This document shows, piece after piece, positions 5,880-61,157 of a DNA stretch of 64,000 bases. Every line of letters starts with the position of its first letter. The first letter of the stretch is position 1. The DNA lies in the sequence record PX880101.1; one strand, written 5' to 3'. Source of the DNA: a phage. The notes beneath the pieces were generated by a model. It was not told where the DNA came from, searched no databases, and was given only the letters and a program-made list of their open reading frames with translations. Position numbers and translations under genes: made by a program.

Positions 5880-6100
5880 TGAATGATAATCATTCTCGTT
5901 TGCAGAATAACGGGCAGGCCCGGTGATTGTCTCCCGGCCCCTGTTGCCCCGGCTTGTTATTATAGTATCACACAGGACAAAGAAAGCAAGGATTTTTTGC
6001 ATAAATTTTTAAATGATAATGATAACCGTTCTCATTTTATGCAGCGCCCATCCCCGGTGGTTGTCTCCCCCGTCACCGGTGCCTGCCGTCCTTTCGATAG
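5880..6100. repeat. two tandem ~75 bp units sharing core GGTG(A/G)TTGTCTCCC
   Basis: Units beginning aatgataat...gcag...ccggtgattgtctccc occur twice in tandem; the ORF-track reading frame here is probably spurious. Confidence 0.6.
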
Positions 6101-6293
6101 GTATATTTTGCCACCTGGCGGGGCCGCTGTCAACACTTTTCAAAAAAAAATTTCTAACCTGATGCGCTGACCGCTGCAACCTGGCGGGGCCAGCCTGGCA
6201 GGGCCTAACTGACCAGGTAGGAGATAATGAAGGCTTGCAAACCTGGTGGGCCTATGCTATAGGATAGGTAACAATTGAAGAGGAGGTACAAAA

Positions 6294-6470
6294 ATGGAAG
6301 GTAATATGATCCCCCTGGAAAATGTAGCTATTAATGACACTGAGGCTATCGCCCTGGTTGAAAAGGCTATGGCGGGAGCGTTGGAACATAAAGAAGAGTA
6401 CGAAAAAATGATGGTTAACCTGGCAGGGGCGGCGGCTGGAGAATTCTACCCAAAAAATAATTTTAACTAA
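6294..6470 (+). CDS. hypothetical small protein (58 aa, below ORF-track cutoff)
   Basis: ATG 8 nt after gaggagg RBS; hand-translated MEGNMIPLENVAIN... to TAA at 6468. Confidence 0.4.
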   Translation: MEGNMIPLENVAINDTEAIALVEKAMAGALEHKEEYEKMMVNLAGAAAGEFYPKNNFN

Positions 6471-6555
6471 TGGTTGACAGCTCGGACAGTTCTTGTTATT
6501 CTTATCCTCGCAAGGTGAACAACACCACACCAATTAACAGAGAGGATAAAAAATC

Positions 6556-6753
6556 ATGAACGCCTACGGAATTAAAGTACGTCGCAACACTCGCCAGGTG
6601 GTCACCAATCAAGTGATTTGCCGGGTGGATGTAACCATCAACAACGGGCAAGGCCTTTATAAATTTCGTCGCGGTCATAGCTATACCCTGCAGCAGCTTA
6701 ACCGTTGCGCCCTGACAAAAGGTCAGATCAACCACTGGTTTAATAAAAAATAA
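6556..6753 (+). CDS. hypothetical small basic protein
   Basis: ORF with agagagg RBS. Confidence 0.5.
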   Translation: MNAYGIKVRRNTRQVVTNQVICRVDVTINNGQGLYKFRRGHSYTLQQLNRCALTKGQINHWFNKK

Positions 6754-6817
6754 ATATTGACACGTAGTCTGACACAAAATATACTTAAATCACAAAAGAC
6801 ACTAAGAGGATAAAATC

Positions 6818-7216
6818 ATGAAAACTACAACCTTTAATTTTGACAATGCCGACTTCTCTTTTTCTGATGTTAAGAATTGCCGCCGTGATCGTGGATTTTA
6901 CAAGGCTTATAATCTGGTTGGCCTAGACGATGATAATAATTTGCACGAAGTAGCGGAGATCCGGTACTATGCCGCCGCCAGCGGTAACACTAACTACTGC
7001 GTTTTTTGGATACACGACAACAAGAATAATAAGTACGGTTATACTGGTGGCAAGGCGAGCGGTCACGGTTATGATAAGGCCAATGCAGCACTTGAGAGCG
7101 CGTTAAATGCTATGGGGATCACTGCCAACGGCTGGATCTATGAAGATGAGTTTTTGTCAGCACTTGCTGCCCACCTGGGGTATAAAAAGCACATTGTGAC
7201 ATGCGCCCACGAATAA
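6818..7216 (+). CDS. hypothetical protein
   Basis: ORF with TTGACA-N17-TATACT promoter and aagagga RBS upstream. Confidence 0.55.
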   Translation: MKTTTFNFDNADFSFSDVKNCRRDRGFYKAYNLVGLDDDNNLHEVAEIRYYAAASGNTNYCVFWIHDNKNNKYGYTGGKASGHGYDKANAALESALNAMGITANGWIYEDEFLSALAAHLGYKKHIVTCAHE

Positions 7217-7226
7217 AAAAAAATTA

Positions 7227-7254
7227 TTGACACGCTGCAAAATTAAAGTAAACT
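7227..7254 (+). promoter_or_regulatory. sigma70-like promoter (TTGACA-N16-TAAACT)
   Basis: Hexamers read directly; followed by leader hairpin and RBS of ORF 7304. Confidence 0.55.
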
Positions 7255-7264
7255 AGACACAAAA

Positions 7265-7283
7265 GGCGGGAATGTTTCCCGCC
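7265..7283 (+). promoter_or_regulatory. 5' leader hairpin GGCGGGAA-tgt-TTCCCGCC (member of a recurring leader-hairpin family)
   Basis: Perfect 8 bp inverted repeat between promoter -10 and RBS. Confidence 0.5.
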
Positions 7284-7303
7284 AACACAAAGGAAAAAAG
7301 ATC

Positions 7304-7699
7304 ATGAATAAGAACGTACGCCGCATCATGAACGAACTGGCAAACGATGAAAAAATTATTGATATGCATTTGGTAAACATTTGCCGCCGTTGTGTAACAT
7401 ATAACAACCGCGCCGCAAAAGCGCGTGAGATGAACGCAAAAGGCACCTTAAAGCCCTTTCAGGTGGTTGTAAAATCTATAACCAGTGCAGCAGACCAGGC
7501 GCATGACCACAACAACGGGAGCACTAATATTGATCCGTCTTACGTAATGAAACGGATCCGGACTTGCAAGAATAAAGAGCAGGTGTATAACGTCATAGAT
7601 TGGTTGGACTCCCTGGGCGATGTGGTTTATAATAGGTTTTCTGCAGCTATCGAGATCCAGCTTGACAGACTGGACGGGAAAGTACTGAAAACTTACTAA
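7304..7699 (+). CDS. hypothetical protein
   Basis: ORF with promoter, leader hairpin and RBS. Confidence 0.55.
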   Translation: MNKNVRRIMNELANDEKIIDMHLVNICRRCVTYNNRAAKAREMNAKGTLKPFQVVVKSITSAADQAHDHNNGSTNIDPSYVMKRIRTCKNKEQVYNVIDWLDSLGDVVYNRFSAAIEIQLDRLDGKVLKTY

Positions 7700-7710
7700 G
7701 TTTATTTTTA

Positions 7711-7734
7711 GATGGCCTTGACGCCAGGGCCATC
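7711..7734 (+). promoter_or_regulatory. 24 bp palindrome GATGGCCTTGACGCCAGGGCCATC overlapping a -35 TTGAC (operator-like), copy 1
   Basis: 10 bp arms (9/10 match) around a 4 bp centre; near-identical 45 bp element repeated at 8330 and 12068. Confidence 0.5.
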
Positions 7735-7778
7735 AATAAAGTAAACTAATCCCAGTTAAGCTAAAAGGAGGCTTGAAG

Positions 7779-7898
7779 ATGAGCACTACACGCCAGCACA
7801 CAAAGGTAACTATTATCGTTTGCATCATTGGTTATATCCTGGCGCAAATGTTGATGGGTAGCGCCAACGGTGTCGCAAAATTTTTCTTAAACTTTTAA
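7779..7898 (+). CDS. small hydrophobic protein (39 aa)
   Basis: Strong aaaaggagg RBS; hand translation MSTTRQHTKVTIIVCIIGYILAQML... Confidence 0.35.
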   Translation: MSTTRQHTKVTIIVCIIGYILAQMLMGSANGVAKFFLNF

Positions 7899-51661: not shown

Positions 51662-52945
51662 TCATTCCAGAACCTCCCAAGTGTCTGGGTCAACATTTCG
51701 GACGCATATACCGACAGGGAATTGGTAGTTGTTGTCTTCTGTCCTTGATTGATATTTGAAGGTGACAAACTTGCCGATCATTTCCTGCATCCTGTCATAG
51801 CTACGCTCCTCGTGCGTGCCTTTCATCTTCATTTTAACAATAACACCTTCCTTGTCAACACAGATAAGAACACCTTCATCATTCTTATCTTTCTCAACGT
51901 CAATAACTTTCACCTCTGCGTCGTTGAACTTTTTCCATTTCAATGCTTCAGATGTTCGCTGACCGTACTCGTATTTACCGCAGAAATTACGCATGATAGT
52001 ACCTTCATATCCTTCGGACATGAATATACCAACAGATTCTTCGCAATGATCAACTGTGTACGCAAGCTCTGCGTCAACAACCTTGATATGGTCAAGCATC
52101 AGAGTGGTAACGGTATCCTCTGCATCCATAAGATCCTTGCAGCGTCCAGACTCTGTTTCTGGATCCCACCACACCTTGTCGCTAGGAATATCAAAAATGT
52201 GATACTCCAGATCGTAGCTACAGTACCCACCGTAACGCAAATCATCACGAACAGGCTCAACATCGACAGGAATATCTACCTTGTTGAAGTTTTTGTATGT
52301 TGATAAGCCTGCCTTAATTGCTGCATGACGGCGTTTTTTATCTGCCTCATAGTCTTTATCGATCTCGGCCTGAATCTCTTCCTGTGTGCGCCACCGTTTA
52401 GCAAGAGACACTATTTTCTGCAAAGGAAGACCATGAATGTATAGTTCCCCATCAAGTTGTTTAATCCCAGTGGTAGAATGGAAAGAACGAAGTTGCTCTA
52501 AAAGCTTTCCTTGAATAGGGTAGGACTTATTACCACGGGAAATAAATTTAGGCTCACCATTTTGGAAAACAACAAGCAGACGAAGGCCATCTAACTTACG
52601 CAAGATCCAGCAAGGTAATTTAAGTGCCTTGCCACGCTTCAGGTAGTCATGCACCAGCATGGGTAAAAGATCAACACCCTGCTCGCAATCTTCCATGTTT
52701 TCAACATACCCCAGACGGACTTGTTTTTCCCACTTGCTGATAGCCTCAAGCTCGGCCTGTTGCTCAGCTGTAGTCTCGTTGGCACGACCTACGTTCTTAG
52801 GTGTGCATACCGTCTCTTTGTACTGCAGTTTACCATCAAGCTTGCCAAACTCTACGATAACCTTATCACCATCCGTGAATACTTTCCACTGTTGGTAGCT
52901 GCCATCTTTATTCAGTGCGTACAGTGTTGTTTTGATCTGATGCAT
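51662..52945 (-). CDS. ATP-dependent DNA ligase
   Basis: Nucleotidyltransferase motifs: I LRKLDG, III LDGELYIHG, IV EGYEGTIMRN, V LKWKKF. Confidence 0.6.
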   Translation of the reverse strand: MHQIKTTLYALNKDGSYQQWKVFTDGDKVIVEFGKLDGKLQYKETVCTPKNVGRANETTAEQQAELEAISKWEKQVRLGYVENMEDCEQGVDLLPMLVHDYLKRGKALKLPCWILRKLDGLRLLVVFQNGEPKFISRGNKSYPIQGKLLEQLRSFHSTTGIKQLDGELYIHGLPLQKIVSLAKRWRTQEEIQAEIDKDYEADKKRRHAAIKAGLSTYKNFNKVDIPVDVEPVRDDLRYGGYCSYDLEYHIFDIPSDKVWWDPETESGRCKDLMDAEDTVTTLMLDHIKVVDAELAYTVDHCEESVGIFMSEGYEGTIMRNFCGKYEYGQRTSEALKWKKFNDAEVKVIDVEKDKNDEGVLICVDKEGVIVKMKMKGTHEERSYDRMQEMIGKFVTFKYQSRTEDNNYQFPVGICVRNVDPDTWEVLE

Positions 52946-53509: not shown

Positions 53510-53571
53510 AACTGACTACCTCACTGCATACTTTCCATAATAAGTAAAGCCGGGTAATCCCGGCTATGTTG

Positions 53572-54285
53572 TTAAATATACTCTGTTACATCCTTGAAGC
53601 TCGAAGGCTTCATAATCTTACCTTTACTGTCAAGGAATATAATAACTTTATTGCCGTTGTAGAACTCCTCTTTAGCAACGAAACCTTCGTAGCGACCACC
53701 AAAACGACGCTCAAGATCTTTAATCTCCAACTCGATGAGTTGTTCAGCAGGCATATCTGCACTGGCACCGTGTGAATGCCGTAGATGGTTGATCCGTGCA
53801 AACTTACTGTCATTAGATTTTAGAACCTTCCGCATCATCCCACACACATCCCCGCTAAGCTGGAACAGCAAAGCTGTTGATAACTCCGCTAGTCGGTAAG
53901 ATGACGCTCTTTGCTTGGATGTGTTTTTCGCAGCGATCAGTGTATCATAGAACTCACCGATCTTGAACTTAAGACCTCGCGGATTATCAAACAGGTTTGA
54001 CCACTTTTCGTGGTTATCATTAACAAGATAAGCTGCATAACTTGTGACAACGTGAAGATCGCAGGCCTCTTTTAGCAGGTGATCTCCACCATCACCTTTC
54101 TCCAGCTCTTCCAAAACCTCATTGAACTCTTCCTCAATGAAGCTAAGCTGTAATTCGAATGGTGTGTATGATTTTTTCACTTTAGCTGCCACACGGTTCC
54201 AGTTTTCCACCCAGTTGGCAGACCAAAGGTAGTTTTCAGGCTGGGACAGTTTTTCCAGGTTGTCGATCAGTTTAGTATTCAGCAT
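53572..54285 (-). CDS. hypothetical protein, possibly MazG-like NTP pyrophosphohydrolase
   Basis: EEEFNEVLEELEKGD...LLKEACDL resembles the MazG EExxE...D pattern; weak. Confidence 0.3.
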   Translation of the reverse strand: MLNTKLIDNLEKLSQPENYLWSANWVENWNRVAAKVKKSYTPFELQLSFIEEEFNEVLEELEKGDGGDHLLKEACDLHVVTSYAAYLVNDNHEKWSNLFDNPRGLKFKIGEFYDTLIAAKNTSKQRASSYRLAELSTALLFQLSGDVCGMMRKVLKSNDSKFARINHLRHSHGASADMPAEQLIELEIKDLERRFGGRYEGFVAKEEFYNGNKVIIFLDSKGKIMKPSSFKDVTEYI

Positions 54286-54298
54286 TAAAGGTCTCCTT

Positions 54299-55060
54299 TT
54301 AAAGTTCCATAAAGTTTTCTACAGTTTCAATAAATGCTTTATCAGAGAAAGCGTCAACAGCACCGTTAAACCATACAGGGATCCCGCGATCCTCATATTG
54401 ATAAAGGTCGCTACGTGAAATGCCACTTCCATCTGCACTCTGCGAATCATACTTGTTTACAATCAGCAGTTTTGTGCCTTTACAAGTAGCAGGAAACAAT
54501 TCCCAGTTAAAATTAATAACTGTGTTAGAACAACCTACCAGGATCACCATATCATTGCTTGTGAGAGATGTCAACAGGTCATACATGTCTGTATACTTAG
54601 GAGCAACCTCACCGAAGAACACTACATTGGGCTTAACCCAGGTATACTTGCCTGTATCTACCTCCGTGTATCCGATATTTTTAATTACATCATTACCTTC
54701 AGCATCTTCGTAGGTGATTTCAGGCAAATACCCGTGGACATGTAAAATATCTTCATGTTTTACACCAGCACGCTCCAGCAAATCATCTACATTGGTAGTA
54801 AGGTTGATCACACGACCAGACCAGCGGGAATACCACTCAGCGATCCGAAGATGTGCAAGGTTAGGATCAACACTGCCCAGAGCTACACGACGTGCATTGT
54901 AAAAGTCATGCACCTTATAGTAGTTCTTGGCAAAGGTGTGGATGTTGCACACCTCATCGATGCTGAAATTCTCCCACATTGCAGTGCTACCAGATCGGAA
55001 AGTGGGAATACCAGATTCAGCGCTCAAACCAGCACCGGAGATAATAATCAGTCGTCGCAT
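54299..55060 (-). CDS. Sir2-family (sirtuin-like) NAD-dependent enzyme
   Basis: GAGLSAESGIPTFRS and NVVFFGE match sirtuin signatures; no CxxC zinc ribbon seen. Confidence 0.7.
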   Translation of the reverse strand: MRRLIIISGAGLSAESGIPTFRSGSTAMWENFSIDEVCNIHTFAKNYYKVHDFYNARRVALGSVDPNLAHLRIAEWYSRWSGRVINLTTNVDDLLERAGVKHEDILHVHGYLPEITYEDAEGNDVIKNIGYTEVDTGKYTWVKPNVVFFGEVAPKYTDMYDLLTSLTSNDMVILVGCSNTVINFNWELFPATCKGTKLLIVNKYDSQSADGSGISRSDLYQYEDRGIPVWFNGAVDAFSDKAFIETVENFMEL

Positions 55061-55068
55061 AAGTGTCC

Positions 55069-55449
55069 TCAGTAGATGTTTTGTTTAATCTCTATTCCAA
55101 ACTTCTTGAATGAGTCAGCAGCAAGCATAAATTTACGAGCTGCCGATGGATTAGAAGTATGCACGAAAATAATCACGTTGTCAATAAGTGGTGGCTTTCC
55201 GAATACAAGTTTCTCCTCTAGCGCAGAGAAGCAGTCGTACCCTTCAAGCACTTCACCTAGATCATTGTCAAAATGCCACTCAGAAACGCGCCTGTAGAGC
55301 TTTCTATTATCGTTAATAAAATCCATGAACTCAGAAGAGTTCTTCAGCCAAAGAGCATCTTGGATTCCGTAATTTGACGGATCTCTCAAGTCATCTAGCC
55401 ACACAATCAACTTCTTCATTGCATATAGTCCTCGTTGTGAAAATAGCAA
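55069..55449 (-). CDS. hypothetical protein
   Basis: ORF. Confidence 0.4.
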   Translation of the reverse strand: MLFSQRGLYAMKKLIVWLDDLRDPSNYGIQDALWLKNSSEFMDFINDNRKLYRRVSEWHFDNDLGEVLEGYDCFSALEEKLVFGKPPLIDNVIIFVHTSNPSAARKFMLAADSFKKFGIEIKQNIY

Positions 55450-56333
55450 TCAAGTATCTCACGGCGTTCCTGCTCCAGGAGGCAGTTCCACACATCTTCT
55501 GTGTAATTGCTACGAATGAAGTTTACCATGCCATAAAACTCTTCGTCAATACGTTTAAAGATATCATCATCCCAAATCTTCCAAGCTTTACCCCTCATTA
55601 CGGCCTTCCGTGCCAAATAGTATGGAGACTTGATCTTCAGCTGCAGGTCATAAGGGTAGTAAGGCTTACGGATCATATACCCTTCGCCCCTTGTTTCTGC
55701 AGCTAATTCTTTTGCATAGCTGAACGGGATTTCACGCACAGTGTGAGGACGTTTTGCACCAAGGTATTTGGCAATCCCATCTAAAGCTGCTTCTGGTAGC
55801 ATTATTCCAGAATCATTATATCTGCAACCTATCAAATATGCGCCATGGTCTTCTTGAACAATATGCGGATCTGAAGGGTGACAAATTTCAAACATGAATG
55901 TCATGTTTTCATTGCCCATAACCTTCTTGATAAGATCTAAATTACCACATTGCTCTTGGATGGTTTCCTTTGCAAGGTTACAATATGGAGAATCAAGAGA
56001 CCCGGTTGTTGAGAACAATAGGTCACCTTTATGAGATGATACCACACCAAGGAATCCGTTCTTTTTCTCTACCGCAGTCACAAGCTTATTGTCAGGCAGG
56101 TTGGTGGAGTTTTCTCCCAAGTTAAACACTTTTGTGAAGGGCCATGCCACAACATTTCCTTCATTACCTACAACAATGCCTCGGCACTCCAGTAAACGAG
56201 GGGACAAATGCCATAAATTGTTGTAAAATACTTTTCTAGCATATTTATAGATCTTTAACCCGAGATCTGGGTAATACCTACTGGTTACAAGACCTTTGTC
56301 AACTAGGTCGTCTGCATTAAAATACTTCATCAT
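55416..56333 (-). CDS. putative RNA ligase (Rnl2-like nucleotidyltransferase)
   Basis: Candidate motifs I EKKNG, III FMFEI, IV EGYMIRKP, V LKIKS; no DNA-ligase OB fold evident. Confidence 0.45.
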   Translation of the reverse strand: MMKYFNADDLVDKGLVTSRYYPDLGLKIYKYARKVFYNNLWHLSPRLLECRGIVVGNEGNVVAWPFTKVFNLGENSTNLPDNKLVTAVEKKNGFLGVVSSHKGDLLFSTTGSLDSPYCNLAKETIQEQCGNLDLIKKVMGNENMTFMFEICHPSDPHIVQEDHGAYLIGCRYNDSGIMLPEAALDGIAKYLGAKRPHTVREIPFSYAKELAAETRGEGYMIRKPYYPYDLQLKIKSPYYLARKAVMRGKAWKIWDDDIFKRIDEEFYGMVNFIRSNYTEDVWNCLLEQERREILDCYFHNEDYMQ

Positions 56334-56395
56334 ACGTTCCTCATTTGTCGTTTTGTCAGTCTATCCTGTCACACAAATAACCTAGTGTCAACACT

Positions 56396-56424
56396 TGAAA
56401 TTAACAAAACAGTTAGATATACTA
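56396..56424 (+). promoter_or_regulatory. sigma70-like promoter (TTGAAA-N17-TATACT)
   Basis: Hexamers upstream of the kinase gene. Confidence 0.45.
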
Positions 56425-56451
56425 TCGTTGAAATTAAAACGGAGGGTCACT

Positions 56452-56862
56452 ATGTCTAAAATGCTATATATCGTGCGTGGTCTACCAAGGTCTGGCAAAT
56501 CAACACTGGCAAATGCGCTATCTTTAGAGGGTCTGTATCCACATTTTGAGAACGACATGTTCTGGTATGACGATGACGGCAATTACAACTGGGATGCAAG
56601 TAAAGTAACACTCGCAGCGAAATGGTGCAAAGATAACGTAGAAGATATGATGCGTATGGGATACGACCGTATCGTGGTAAGTAATACGTTTACAAAAGAA
56701 AAACATGTGCAGGAATATGTTGACATGGCAATCAGTCATGGGTATAGTTATACCGTGATCGTGGTTGAAAACCGCCACGGTAATAAAAGCATTCATGATG
56801 TTCCAGACAAGGTTGTGGATCGTATGGAACGCCAGCTTAAAAACTGCATTAAACTTAAATGA
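56452..56862 (+). CDS. P-loop polynucleotide-kinase-like protein
   Basis: Walker A GLPRSGKST at N-terminus; start set at ATG after ggaggg RBS. Confidence 0.5.
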   Translation: MSKMLYIVRGLPRSGKSTLANALSLEGLYPHFENDMFWYDDDGNYNWDASKVTLAAKWCKDNVEDMMRMGYDRIVVSNTFTKEKHVQEYVDMAISHGYSYTVIVVENRHGNKSIHDVPDKVVDRMERQLKNCIKLK

Positions 56863-56869
56863 GGAATGT

Positions 56870-57424
56870 ATGAAATACTTTGTAACAAGCGACACACACT
56901 TTCTCCACCAGCGGGTCATGGAGTTTGATTCATGTCAAAAACACAGATCTCAGTATGATCACAATCTTGACAGTATGAATGCGGGAATCATCGCCGAATG
57001 GAACTCTGTTGTGTCACCTGCAGACACTGTGTTCCACTTGGGAGATATTGCGTGCACTAATGATAAGAATATCAACAACTTACTTCCAGATATTCTAAAT
57101 ATGTTGAACGGACATATTATTCTTGTTCGTGGCAACCATGACACAAGGACGACTGTCAGAATTATGAAAGAGTTCGGTCATGAGGTTGTAGATTATTACG
57201 AGCTTCGCCACAACAAGAATTTGATCTGTATGAGCCATTACCAATTTGCAAAGTGGAACAGAAAGCCTCACGGATCAGTCCAACTGTTCGGTCATGCTCA
57301 CGGAACCACACAACAGTTGTTTGGCAGGCAGCTTGATGTCGGTTGGGATGTGTGGGGGAGACTCTTACCATTAGAAGAGGCATACCGTATTGCAATGAGT
57401 TTTGCTATTGACAGCGGGGAGTAA
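56870..57424 (+). CDS. calcineurin-like metallophosphoesterase
   Basis: SDTHF, GDIA and GNHD motifs; start set at MKYFVTSDTHF rather than the upstream in-frame M inside the kinase gene. Confidence 0.6.
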   Translation: MKYFVTSDTHFLHQRVMEFDSCQKHRSQYDHNLDSMNAGIIAEWNSVVSPADTVFHLGDIACTNDKNINNLLPDILNMLNGHIILVRGNHDTRTTVRIMKEFGHEVVDYYELRHNKNLICMSHYQFAKWNRKPHGSVQLFGHAHGTTQQLFGRQLDVGWDVWGRLLPLEEAYRIAMSFAIDSGE

Positions 57425-57471
57425 TCCCTGCTATTTTAAAGAAAATTGCCACACAAGGAGAATCAGGAGAT

Positions 57472-57822
57472 ATGAAAGATGGGGATAAGCTGCTATATCT
57501 TAAAGTCCCCCTTGAAATACTGTCTATGTCAAAAGTTTTGAATGACACAACTGGAGAGGTTGTTGTTCTTGACTTGTATGACAAGATCGTATACTGCTAC
57601 CTGCACAACTGGTATAAGCTTGGAGGAAATTCACGCTTCACACCCAGCACAAGGAAAATTGCAGCAGATGTTGGGATAAAGAAAACAAAAGCAGCAGCGT
57701 GCGTTAAAACTTTAGAGTGTGCAGGGGTGGTTGAAATATCCACACAAGGGAGAGGTAAAAGATGCACATTTTCCAAAGTTTTGCCACCAGAAGAAGTTAT
57801 TCGGATGTCAACAACTGGTTAG
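57472..57822 (+). CDS. hypothetical protein, possible HTH DNA-binding
   Basis: C-terminal STRKIAADVGIKKTKAAACVKTLECAGVV resembles a helix-turn-helix; lies just upstream of the palindromic iteron array. Confidence 0.4.
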   Translation: MKDGDKLLYLKVPLEILSMSKVLNDTTGEVVVLDLYDKIVYCYLHNWYKLGGNSRFTPSTRKIAADVGIKKTKAAACVKTLECAGVVEISTQGRGKRCTFSKVLPPEEVIRMSTTG

Positions 57823-57896
57823 ACCAGTAAAAACTTAAATATCTGTACTATAAGGATTCGTATGTTTTATGTTCGCTCTAGAATAGAGGTCAGTAA

Positions 57897-57979
57897 CTGT
57901 CCGTGATACGGACACTACTGTCCGTCACGCGGACACATCTGCCCGTAATACGGACACTAACTGTCCGTGATACGGACAC
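57897..57979. repeat. four tandem ~19 bp units each containing inverted repeat GTCCGT-N-ACGGAC, ~21 bp period
   Basis: ctgtccgtgatacggacac at 57897, 57918 (variant), 57938 (variant), 57961. Confidence 0.7.
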
Positions 57980-58120
57980 ATAAAGAATATAACTAAAATA
58001 ACTAAATAATAAAAAAATAAAAGATCTAGTACTTATGGTACTAAAGTACATATACTTAACTTATGTAGAATATACCAGATCCTAAGTACCATGTTTTAAA
58101 TTTATTACTTACTATAGGTA

Positions 58121-60344: not shown

Positions 60345-60419
60345 GCCCTGTTAGCTTAGTGGATAAAGCAGCGGCCTTCTAAGCCGTTGACACTGGTTCG
60401 AGTCCAGTACGGGGTGCCA
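60345..60419 (+). tRNA. tRNA-Arg (anticodon TCT)
   Basis: Hand-folded cloverleaf: acceptor GCCCTGT/ACGGGGT with G-U pairs, loop CTTCTAA, T-loop TTCGAGT, encoded CCA. Confidence 0.75.
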
Positions 60420-60423
60420 AATT

Positions 60424-60510
60424 GGGGAGTTATCCCGTAGAGGTAGCGGTGTAGACTGTAAATCTATTGTCATTGCGACTCGGGTGGTTCGACTCCACCA
60501 CTCCCCACCA
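60424..60510 (+). tRNA. tRNA-Tyr (anticodon GTA)
   Basis: Acceptor GGGGAGT/ACTCCCC, loop CTGTAAA, long variable arm, T-loop TTCGACT, CCA. Confidence 0.8.
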
Positions 60511-60624
60511 AATTTATATTTTTAGATGCATAAATAATACAGATAATGGCATTGATATTTATCGTCGTTTATACTAGTCACTAACTGCTCGAAAATCAGT
60601 GTCATTATCAGTATAATTTATAAA

Positions 60625-60715
60625 GGAGGGTAGGGAGCAATGGTGCTCAAGCGGTCTTGAAAACCGTCCCGTTGGGTATGACTCGATGATGGTTCGATTC
60701 CATTACTCTCCGCCA
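60625..60715 (+). tRNA. tRNA-Ser (anticodon TGA)
   Basis: Acceptor GGAGGGT/ACTCTCC, loop CTTGAAA, long variable arm, T-loop TTCGATT, CCA. Confidence 0.7.
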
Positions 60716-60813
60716 CATTGTTGACCTTGTAATTAAGCGAAAGCCGGAAGCAGAACCGGATTATCAAATGTTACAGTCGTCATCGCCGACTAGCAACATG
60801 GTCAACATACTGA

Positions 60814-60912
60814 GCTAGGTAAGCCCTTTGGCAAGGGCGAGGATTTTTAATCCTGAAAATAGACGAGGTAGTAGTTGAATACATAGGTGGTTCGATTCCA
60901 TCACCTAGCACC
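60814..60912 (+). tRNA. aberrant tRNA-like element (possible Lys-TTT loop) with ~29 nt insertion before the T-arm
   Basis: Perfect acceptor GCTAGGT/ACCTAGC, D-arm GCCC-TTTGGCAA-GGGC, T-loop GGTTCGATTCC, but oversized variable region and imperfect anticodon stem; no encoded CCA. Confidence 0.35.
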
Positions 60913-60917
60913 TTTTT

Positions 60918-60993
60918 GCTGATGTAGCACAATCGGTAGTGCAATTGATTTGTAATCAATAGGTTGTAGGTTCAAGTCCTGCCATCAGCACCA
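60918..60993 (+). tRNA. tRNA-Thr (anticodon TGT)
   Basis: Acceptor GCTGATG/CATCAGC, D-arm GCAC/GTGC, loop TTTGTAA, T-loop TTCAAGT, CCA. Confidence 0.8.
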
Positions 60994-60994
60994 A

Positions 60995-61069
60995 GGCCCT
61001 GTAGCTGGAAGGTTCAAGCAAGCGACTCATAATCGCCAGACGGTGGTTCAATTCCACCCAGGGCCACCA
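60995..61069 (+). tRNA. tRNA-Met (anticodon CAT; could be Ile-lysidine type)
   Basis: Acceptor GGCCCTG/CAGGGCC, loop CTCATAA, T-loop TTCAATT, CCA; no initiator-type features. Confidence 0.7.
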
Positions 61070-61080
61070 AATAATAAATA

Positions 61081-61157
61081 CTCCGCGTAGCTCAGCTTGG
61101 TAGAGCGCCTGATTTGGGATCAGGAGGTCGAGTGTTCGAATCACTCCGTGGAGACCA
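61081..61157 (+). tRNA. tRNA-Pro (anticodon TGG)
   Basis: Acceptor CTCCGCG/CGTGGAG (C1:G72), D-arm GCTC/GAGC, loop TTTGGGA, T-loop TTCGAAT, CCA. Confidence 0.75.

Follow-up and report, generated by a model that had tools for sequence, protein, structure and literature searches.

A candidate RNA repair cassette with separate ligase, kinase and metallophosphoesterase genes near the tRNA cluster of an rV5-like phage

Background

Do a ligase-like gene, a small P-loop kinase gene and a calcineurin-like phosphoesterase gene that lie side by side near a cluster of phage tRNA genes encode a system for RNA repair, and if so for which RNA and for what purpose? This question is raised by positions 55416-57424 of sequence record PX880101.1, a stretch of 64,000 nucleotides (referred to below as the window) from an rV5-like myovirus (Vequintavirus). 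tRNA-cleaving defences (PrrC, RloC, PARIS and retron/toxin tRNases) are now recognised as common, and to our knowledge the experimentally known phage counter-measures to tRNases are essentially T4 Pnkp and Rnl1, plus replacement tRNAs. A first-pass annotation of the window, made from the sequence alone, had read the three genes as a tRNA repair set resembling T4 Pnkp/Rnl1, with an Rnl2-like ligase and with the kinase and the phosphatase as separate proteins. That interpretation is partly supported by the analysis reported here: its outline was right, the ligase family was wrong, the gene content was incomplete and the system was not new. The cassette is considered as a probable RNA (most likely tRNA) heal-and-seal repair module, to which a probability of about 65% is given. 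Directly supported are the family membership of the proteins, their catalytic residues, the operon structure, and the conserved linkage of the genes to one another and to tRNA genes. A tRNA-linked, split T4 Pnkp/Rnl1-like set is supported by family assignments and by comparative genomics.

The cassette has already been annotated and predicted in print, and the system is not newly recognised. Gene contexts of this kind are said to have been described, probably for the first time, by Burroughs and Aravind in 2016. Phage V5 and Proteus phage Mydo were presented by Iyer, Burroughs, Anantharaman and Aravind in 2022 (PMC9503650) as the prototypes of a type 2 sirtuin-centred RNA-repair neighbourhood, for which an NAD+-using RNA repair system was predicted computationally. 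The BASEL Vequintavirus records already annotate an "RNA ligase", a "polynucleotide kinase" and a "putative phosphoesterase", and a 2025 Pakpunavirus paper made the same annotation-level inference for a polynucleotide kinase (PNK) without a phosphatase domain adjoining an RNA ligase.

The three genes and their family assignments

Positions 54000-58000 of the window are 100% identical to Escherichia phage A6-1, and phage V5 (DQ832317) is about 97% identical to the window over the cassette region. At least 80% of this 4-kb region is present in 118 of 120 matching phage records, nearly all of them at 90-100% identity. The three genes are intact and consist of a ligase gene of 305 aa on the minus strand (55416..56333), a stand-alone PNK-like P-loop kinase gene of 136 aa on the plus strand (56452..56862), and a binuclear metallophosphoesterase (MPE) gene of 184 aa, also on the plus strand (56870..57424). 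As the first-pass annotation had described, the ligase gene is transcribed divergently from the kinase-MPE pair, and the motifs EKKNG, EGYMIRKP, GLPRSGKST, SDTHF, GDIA and GNHD are all present. The shared spacer measures 118 bp (56334..56451). The raw open reading frame (ORF) of the kinase (56395-56862) begins at an upstream TTG, the true start being the ATG at 56452, which follows a GGAGG ribosome-binding site; that of the MPE covers 56765-57424, with the true start at the ATG at 56870, 7 nt past the kinase stop. The three genes are confirmed as real genes and not chance ORFs, since their Pfam matches exceed the gathering cut-offs, the region is conserved and the catalytic residues are kept; in homologues at 30-50% identity these residues are all retained. 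Each component of the cassette is present in one copy in the window, and no NCBIfam equivalog was obtained for any of them.

The ligase matched Pfam family PF09511 (RNA_lig_T4_1) over all 227 positions of the profile, with E 1e-14 and 55.4 bits (gathering cut-off 28.3), and phrog_562 at E 9e-66. Single-sequence phmmer searches of the PDB with the ligase and the kinase returned nothing meaningful, and family profiles were therefore used for PDB searches. The ligase profile (A1), built from 27 family members at 40-49% identity to the window ligase, matched T4 Rnl1 (2C5U) at E 4.3e-15 over T4 residues 51-250. Twelve residues are invariant in the 27 ligases (R51, K68, F70, K90, N92, G93, F148, E149, E217, G218, K233 and K235) and align with the ECRG, EKFF, KEDG, FEF, EGY and KIK segments of T4 Rnl1. 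The EKKNG motif provides K90-x-N92-G93 (motif I) and EGYMIRKP provides E217-G218 (motif IV), F148/E149 and K233/K235 represent motifs III and V, and R51 and K68-x-F70 are upstream residues specific to Rnl1. A structural model of the ligase (AF2; pLDDT 92) was compared with known structures using Foldseek: T4 Rnl1 was the best match (3.9e-12), closely accompanied by fungal Trl1-LIG (about 1e-11, TM 0.60-0.64) and Rnl3 (about 1e-11), with weaker matches to Naegleria Rnl5 (about 1e-5) and to T4 Rnl2 (1.4e-5, TM 0.39). From profile and modelled fold, the ligase is assigned to the T4 Rnl1/tRNA-ligase family. The Rnl2-like identity proposed at first did not hold, as no PF09414 match was obtained at E <= 0.01 and T4 Rnl2 was reached in Foldseek only at the value given above. 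A DNA ligase or an unrelated fold, the alternatives raised together with that proposal, were also checked: the modelled fold is closest to that of Rnl1, and the Rnl1-like gene is not the phage's DNA ligase, because a separate ATP-dependent DNA ligase gene is present at 51662-52945. No second type of RNA ligase was found in the window using a PF09414-type hidden Markov model (HMM).

The kinase matched Pfam family AAA_33 (E 1.6e-8, 35.4 bits against a cut-off of 27), phrog_2071 at 1.5e-56 and phrog_505, labelled "polynucleotide kinase", at 1e-8. The kinase profile (A2), built from 28 family sequences, was aligned to PDB entries over nearly its full length: the T4 Pnk kinase domain (1LY1/1LTQ) at 2e-11 (profile positions 1-129), Capnocytophaga Pnkp1 (4XRP) at 3.4e-11 and CthPnk (4GP7) at 7.5e-11, the next matches being L-seryl-tRNA(Sec) kinase (PSTK) at 2e-9 and mammalian PNKP at 8e-7. 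A match to AK9 ranked higher in this search but covers the P-loop only. Five residues are invariant in the 28 kinases, namely G10, G15, K16 and T18 of the P-loop (GLPRSGKST) and D35, which aligns with the general base of T4 Pnk (D35; D38 in the Clostridium thermocellum enzyme, Cth). The position of T4 Pnk R126 is occupied by Lys in the window kinase, and the Arg of its ENRHG segment aligns with T4 R122, in a segment that is variable across the family. On this profile evidence, the kinase is grouped with the polynucleotide kinases T4 Pnk, CthPnk and Pnkp1. The protein corresponds to a kinase domain alone, without a phosphatase domain, and the MPE is encoded by its own gene, in line with the separate proteins of the first reading. 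A T4 Pnkp-type bifunctional enzyme, combining the kinase with a DxDxT/HAD 3'-phosphatase, was ruled out for the same reason.

The MPE carries the SDTHF, GDIA and GNHD motifs and matched the Pfam Metallophos family at 26.2 bits (cut-off 21.5). Two independent alignments show no variation in its metal-ligand motifs (D8/H10, G58/D59, G88/N89/H90, H123 and G141/H142/H144). A strong match of both sequence and fold places it in the family of Aquifex aeolicus AQ_1665 (PDB 1XM7), an uncharacterised structural-genomics MPE from which no function can be transferred to the cassette MPE. The earlier description as a calcineurin-like phosphoesterase therefore stands at the level of the superfamily; at the finer level, an identity of the lambda-phosphatase or CthPnkp type was rejected, the nearest sequence and structural affinity being to neither. 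The nearest characterised structural neighbours are phosphodiesterases (MJ0936, YfcE and GpdQ). Homology transfers no biochemical function to the MPE, and nothing points to a protein phosphatase; it is through its gene context, and through that only, that the MPE is a candidate 2',3'-cyclic-phosphate / 3'-phosphate end-healing enzyme.

A side feature of the MPE family is a near-invariant His-His pair at the C-terminus (...DHH/HH). The window MPE (57395-57424), and the rV5 lineage generally, end in ...FAIDSGE without this pair, which is kept in the closest relatives outside the rV5 lineage (e.g. L007, 50% identity).

Proposed pathway and comparison with known systems

We infer every enzymatic step of the pathway, its tRNA substrate and its anti-defence purpose, as follows. 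A host ribonuclease would cut a tRNA in the anticodon loop and leave a 2',3'-cyclic phosphate and a 5'-OH. The small P-loop kinase would phosphorylate the 5'-OH, the binuclear MPE would produce a 3'-OH by opening and removing the cyclic or 3' phosphate, and the Rnl1-family ligase, adenylylated on Lys90, would activate the 5' phosphate and reseal the loop. In an alternative route in rV5-like phages, the product of a neighbouring cREC (cyclic-phosphate-processing receiver-like) gene would open the cyclic phosphate to a 2'-phosphate, which a Sir2-family enzyme would strip with NAD+, as Tpt1/KptA does, other enzymes clearing the ADP-ribose product (Iyer et al.).

The closest precedent is that of phage T4, whose Pnkp and Rnl1 are described as repairing the damage made by PrrC. 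The cassette resembles this pair in two respects: its ligase is of the Rnl1 family and shares the catalytic motifs of T4 Rnl1, and its kinase is a homologue of the kinase domain of Pnkp in which the P-loop and the general-base Asp are kept. By analogy, the same reactions would be expected, namely phosphorylation of the 5' end, dephosphorylation of the 3' end and sealing. It differs from T4 Pnkp in that the kinase has no DxDxT (HAD) phosphatase, which the MPE and/or cREC would replace, and from the T4 pathway as a whole in the presence of Sir2 and MazG-like genes without a T4 counterpart. The proposal of a healing-and-sealing set as in T4 is sustained by the protein families, their co-occurrence across distant phages, the proximity of tRNA genes and the fusion of kinase to ligase documented below, while the gene content on which it was based was incomplete.

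In Clostridium thermocellum Pnkp, a binuclear MPE is described as performing end-healing by 2',3'-cyclic phosphodiesterase and phosphomonoesterase activities (PMC2190708). The cassette kinase is homologous to the kinases of this system (CthPnk, acting with Hen1) and of the Capnocytophaga Pnkp1-Rnl-Hen1 system (Pnkp1). Unlike CthPnkp, the cassette consists of three separate proteins, with an MPE of a different family. As regards the fungal and plant Trl1-Tpt1 pathway, the modelled fold of the cassette ligase matches Trl1-LIG almost as well as T4 Rnl1, and the predicted cREC-Sir2 branch would mirror, by analogy, the logic of CPDase and Tpt1; the cassette differs in that Trl1 fuses ligase, kinase and 2H cyclic phosphodiesterase, and Tpt1 has an ART fold and is not a sirtuin.

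Association with tRNA genes

The cassette lies beside a tRNA cluster, as initially pointed out: seven phage tRNA genes (60345..61157, plus strand; ARAGORN and Rfam RF00005) start 2.9 kb beyond the MPE, in the order Arg-TCT, Tyr-GTA, Ser-TGA, a 97-nt Lys-TTT, Thr-TGT, CAT and Pro-TGG. In 26 of the 37 related loci scanned, the ligase has tRNA genes at a distance of up to about 10 kb, compared with a chance baseline of about 15-25%, which is an estimate (20-kb window, genome of 90-150 kb, one tRNA cluster) and not a computed null. In two loci (L057 and L080), the module is inserted between two blocks of a large tRNA array. The tRNAs of the window are likely substrates or partners of the cassette.

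The same proximity could be explained if the module served housekeeping RNA processing, that is, the maturation or recycling of phage tRNAs or other transcripts (for example by joining pieces cut by a phage or host processing nuclease), and not counter-defence. This explanation shares its enzymes and its chemistry with the repair of cleaved tRNA, and only the purpose differs. It would account for a module located within or beside phage tRNA arrays and present in essentially all Vequintavirus genomes, where a variable accessory distribution is not seen, and it could accommodate the odd 97-nt tRNA-Lys of the window cluster, with its 30 or so extra nucleotides. However, neither a splicing endonuclease nor a bulge-helix-bulge-like motif was identified, the remaining six tRNAs of the window look ordinary, and the known phage precedent (T4 Pnkp and Rnl1) is a counter-defence system, so that a housekeeping role is considered rather unlikely.

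Some of the tRNA genes deserve separate mention. The 97-nt tRNA (60814-60910, plus strand) has a UUU (Lys) anticodon loop and about 30 extra nucleotides at the variable-arm position, in which no convincing hairpin was found. It was reported by ARAGORN as "tRNA-???" with a 4-base anticodon and reached only 35.5 bits with Rfam; it is conserved in rV5-like phages, where it is annotated as tRNA-Lys, tRNA-OTHER or tRNA-TERM, or not annotated. It could be a nuclease-evading variant, because PrrC and PARIS target tRNA-Lys(UUU), or it could be a precursor that needs processing. The CAT tRNA (60995-61069, plus strand) was predicted as "Met" by ARAGORN, and is given in the record of BASEL phage AlexBoehm as a tRNA-Ile reading ATA; under the latter annotation, it would be a lysidine-modified tRNA. 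In related contigs, tmRNA genes and suppressor-type tRNAs (CTA "Pyl" and TTA "Stop") are found within 10 kb of the module (L041:16168-16570, L042, L046, L064 and L080; L045:13165-13237, L046:17172-17247, L050:14740-14816 and L064:14668-14740).

Gene neighbourhood surveys

A survey anchored on the ligase was performed on 80 viral-contig loci (36-90% ligase identity), in which ORFs were searched with iterated HMMs built from the window proteins. Collapsing the ligases at 90% identity left 49 non-redundant loci flanked on each side by 3 kb or more, and partners were counted within 3 kb of the ligase. The kinase was present in 41 of the 49 loci, the MPE in 42, both in 37 and at least one of the two in 46. 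With few exceptions, kinase and MPE share the strand of the ligase, the ORFs often abut or overlap, and four gene orders were observed; only in the rV5 lineage is the layout divergent as it is in the window. Sir2 (9/49), cREC (8/49) and MazG-like genes (3/49) are limited to rV5/phi92-like relatives. The trio of kinase, MPE and ligase, and not the sirtuin, is thus the conserved core. In nine loci (3 of 63 non-redundant ligase clusters), kinase and ligase form a single polypeptide, as in L041, where AAA_33 covers residues 2-101 and RNA_lig_T4_1 residues 170-353; no replacement phosphatase was found by Pfam beside these fusions.

A second survey, anchored on the kinase, covered 80 further loci (67 with good flanks), and bears on the possibility that the kinase and the MPE serve the neighbouring ATP-dependent DNA ligase by processing DNA ends (nicks with 5'-OH and 3'-phosphate, or damaged termini), the Rnl1-like protein being incidental. 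Among the 67 loci, the MPE was found in 45, an Rnl1-like ligase in 33, another RNA ligase (PF09414 with a PHA02142 OB domain) in 20, and an RNA ligase of either type in 49, whereas a DNA ligase was found in only 12 of all 80 loci. The kinase fusions are likewise with RNA ligase and not with DNA ligase, and tRNA genes lie nearby. Where the Rnl1-type enzyme is absent, the other RNA ligase family is present instead, in one case together with a CCA-type nucleotidyltransferase: in L132 (5332-8398), an AQ_1665-type MPE, a PNK-like kinase, a PF09414 ligase with an N-terminal PHA02142 OB domain and a PolyA_pol/CCA-adding-type nucleotidyltransferase are co-directional and abutting. A function in DNA-end processing is accordingly judged unlikely. 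The persistence of the kinase-MPE pair when another RNA ligase family replaces the ligase favours the view of the pair as a unit for RNA end-healing.

The ligase operon

The first description of the cassette had overlooked the rest of the ligase operon. The ligase heads a compact minus-strand unit that continues with the cREC gene (55069..55419, 116 aa), a gene for a Sir2-family NAD+-dependent enzyme (54299..55060, 253 aa) and, as the last gene, a candidate MazG-like nucleotide pyrophosphohydrolase (53572..54285, 237 aa). The cREC ATG overlaps the ligase stop codon (ATGA), and the following gaps are of 8 nt (cREC to Sir2) and 13 nt (Sir2 to MazG-like). Immediately past the MazG-like stop, a terminator-like scan detected, on both strands, a G+C-rich hairpin (AGCCGGG-TAAT-CCCGGCT, 53548..53565) with 7 pairs, of which 6 are G-C, and a weak T-run; from its sequence, it is the probable end of the transcription unit. 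For the kinase-MPE unit, a promoter-like site (TTGAAA-17-TATACT) is present in the divergent spacer, on the plus strand at 56395..56423, as a consensus match only. A sigma-70 scan gave no promoter for the ligase operon, the minus strand having a perfect TTGACA without a good -10 hexamer.

The cREC protein matched Pfam PF20274 (cREC_REC) at E 5.7e-14 and phrog_1479 at 5e-34; the family was defined in a 2021 jumbo-phage paper by the group of Iyer et al., and its function is a published prediction. The Sir2 protein matched Pfam SIR2 at E 6.9e-28 and phrog_2162 at 1.5e-108, and its best PDB match was E. coli CobB (1S5P, E 3e-21). It retains the GAGxS and HG motifs, including the catalytic His, the zinc-ribbon cysteines of canonical sirtuins are all absent, and it fell below every NCBIfam deacylase cut-off. 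The MazG-like protein matched phrog_671 ("nucleotide pyrophosphohydrolase") at E 1.9e-21 and gave no match in Pfam, NCBIfam or PDB sequences; a MazG-superfamily member of this neighbourhood was listed by Iyer et al. 2022 (PMC9503650).

With these genes, the window corresponds to the V5/Mydo neighbourhood at the same locus: T4-like tRNA ligase, cREC, nucleotide kinase, sirtuin, MazG-like protein and calcineurin-like phosphoesterase are all six encoded within 53572-57424. The published description differs from the present one in that it is centred on the sirtuin and considers the phosphoesterase as "occasional", whereas the surveys reported here place the kinase, the MPE and the ligase in a widespread core. 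In three loci of the kinase-anchored survey (L152, L155 and L156), a kinase (about 5900-6378), an Rnl1-like ligase (6369-7442) and a cREC (7402-7890) have overlapping ORFs, and no MPE is present within 6 kb. This kinase-ligase-cREC arrangement without an MPE hints that cREC may substitute for the MPE as the 3' end-healing enzyme.

The operon also brings in the possibility that the MPE, cREC, Sir2 and MazG-like proteins act without the ligase and the kinase, either by breaking down immune signals of nucleotide or ADP-ribose origin or by managing NAD+, in which case their adjacency would reflect only an early-gene counter-defence island. This would be in line with the phosphodiesterases found as the nearest characterised structural neighbours of the MPE and with the action of cREC on cyclic ADP-ribose phosphate that the Aravind group also predicts. 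It would also suit locus L085 (63-9778), where two AQ_1665-type MPE paralogues are found amid a NAMPT-like gene and one resembling PRPP synthetase, and where cREC and an AAA_33 kinase form a pair some 2 kb further downstream, an arrangement that may link MPE, cREC and kinase to phage NAD+ salvage or reconstitution and not to RNA ligation. Yet in many lineages the MPE is tightly coupled to RNA ligases and the PNK-like kinase, the gene order being variable and the ORFs often overlapping, and the Sir2, cREC and MazG-like genes occur in one lineage only, whereas the kinase-MPE-ligase trio is general; we regard this possibility as quite improbable. PADLOC gave no informative match, so that nothing points to a defence system over a counter-defence system.

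Among the records that match the rV5-like region, 18 are named "Campylobacter phage" (host C. jejuni in 16); those listed (e.g. MG065635 and MG065653) are about 98% identical, which suggests a wrong host label or contamination.

Discussion

Several observations weigh against the repair of cleaved RNA as the function of the cassette. The T4 RnlA equivalog (TIGR02308) was missed by a wide interval (38.8 bits against 242.25, profile positions 32-251 of 373), and the ligase lacks the C-terminal tRNA-specificity domain of T4 Rnl1, the alignment to the T4 protein stopping near T4 residue 250; with 305 aa against 374 aa, it falls 69 residues short of the T4 enzyme, whose C-domain of about 120 aa is replaced by a short helical C-terminal region. 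In the kinase family, the position of T4 Pnk R38 is not conserved (Trp in the window kinase). The window encodes two candidate 3'-healing enzymes, the MPE and cREC. A DNA ligase was found within 3 kb of the RNA ligase in 23 of the 49 loci of the ligase-anchored survey, and because of this the region is also a general nucleic-acid-metabolism block. The linkage of MPE to ligase is not reciprocal at depth, since three distant MPE homologues (32-35% identity) in phage contigs have no Rnl1-like ligase within 5 kb. Finally, the cassette enzymes and the AQ_1665-like MPE family as a whole are uncharacterised, and no experimental paper was found on the RNA ligase, kinase, sirtuin or anticodon-nuclease sensitivity of rV5/Vequintavirinae phages, the statements found being computational or at the level of annotation.

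That the main role of the ligase homologue is in tail-fibre attachment, as for T4 gp63, with the kinase and the MPE as unrelated enzymes of nucleotide metabolism, is very improbable: the label "RNA ligase and tail fiber protein attachment catalyst", found in PHROG and in many GenBank records, was transferred from T4 by homology, whereas the catalytic residues of the ligase are invariant across the family, its gene lies among nucleic-acid enzymes and tRNAs, away from tail genes, and in some phages it is fused to the kinase.

Within the reading of the cassette as an RNA repair module, a more specific proposal can be made tentatively, as a possibility and not as the expected outcome: the AQ_1665-type MPE may be the missing 3' healer of a widespread "split Pnkp" module that uses two interchangeable RNA ligase families in tRNA arrays, and to which rV5-like phages may add a second, yeast-like branch through a 2'-phosphate, made by cREC and removed from RNA with NAD+ by a zinc-less sirtuin. 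If true, this sirtuin would be the first with RNA as its substrate and would replace Tpt1/KptA without being homologous to it.

If the module works as predicted, the idea of a sirtuin standing in for Tpt1 in the removal of RNA 2'-phosphates would become directly testable in rV5-like phages, and the isogenic Vequintavirus phages of the BASEL collection on E. coli K-12 make the system experimentally tractable. The uncharacterised AQ_1665-like MPE family would gain a function, and tRNA repair would then be a counter-defence widespread among large phages and extending far past the T4-like ones.

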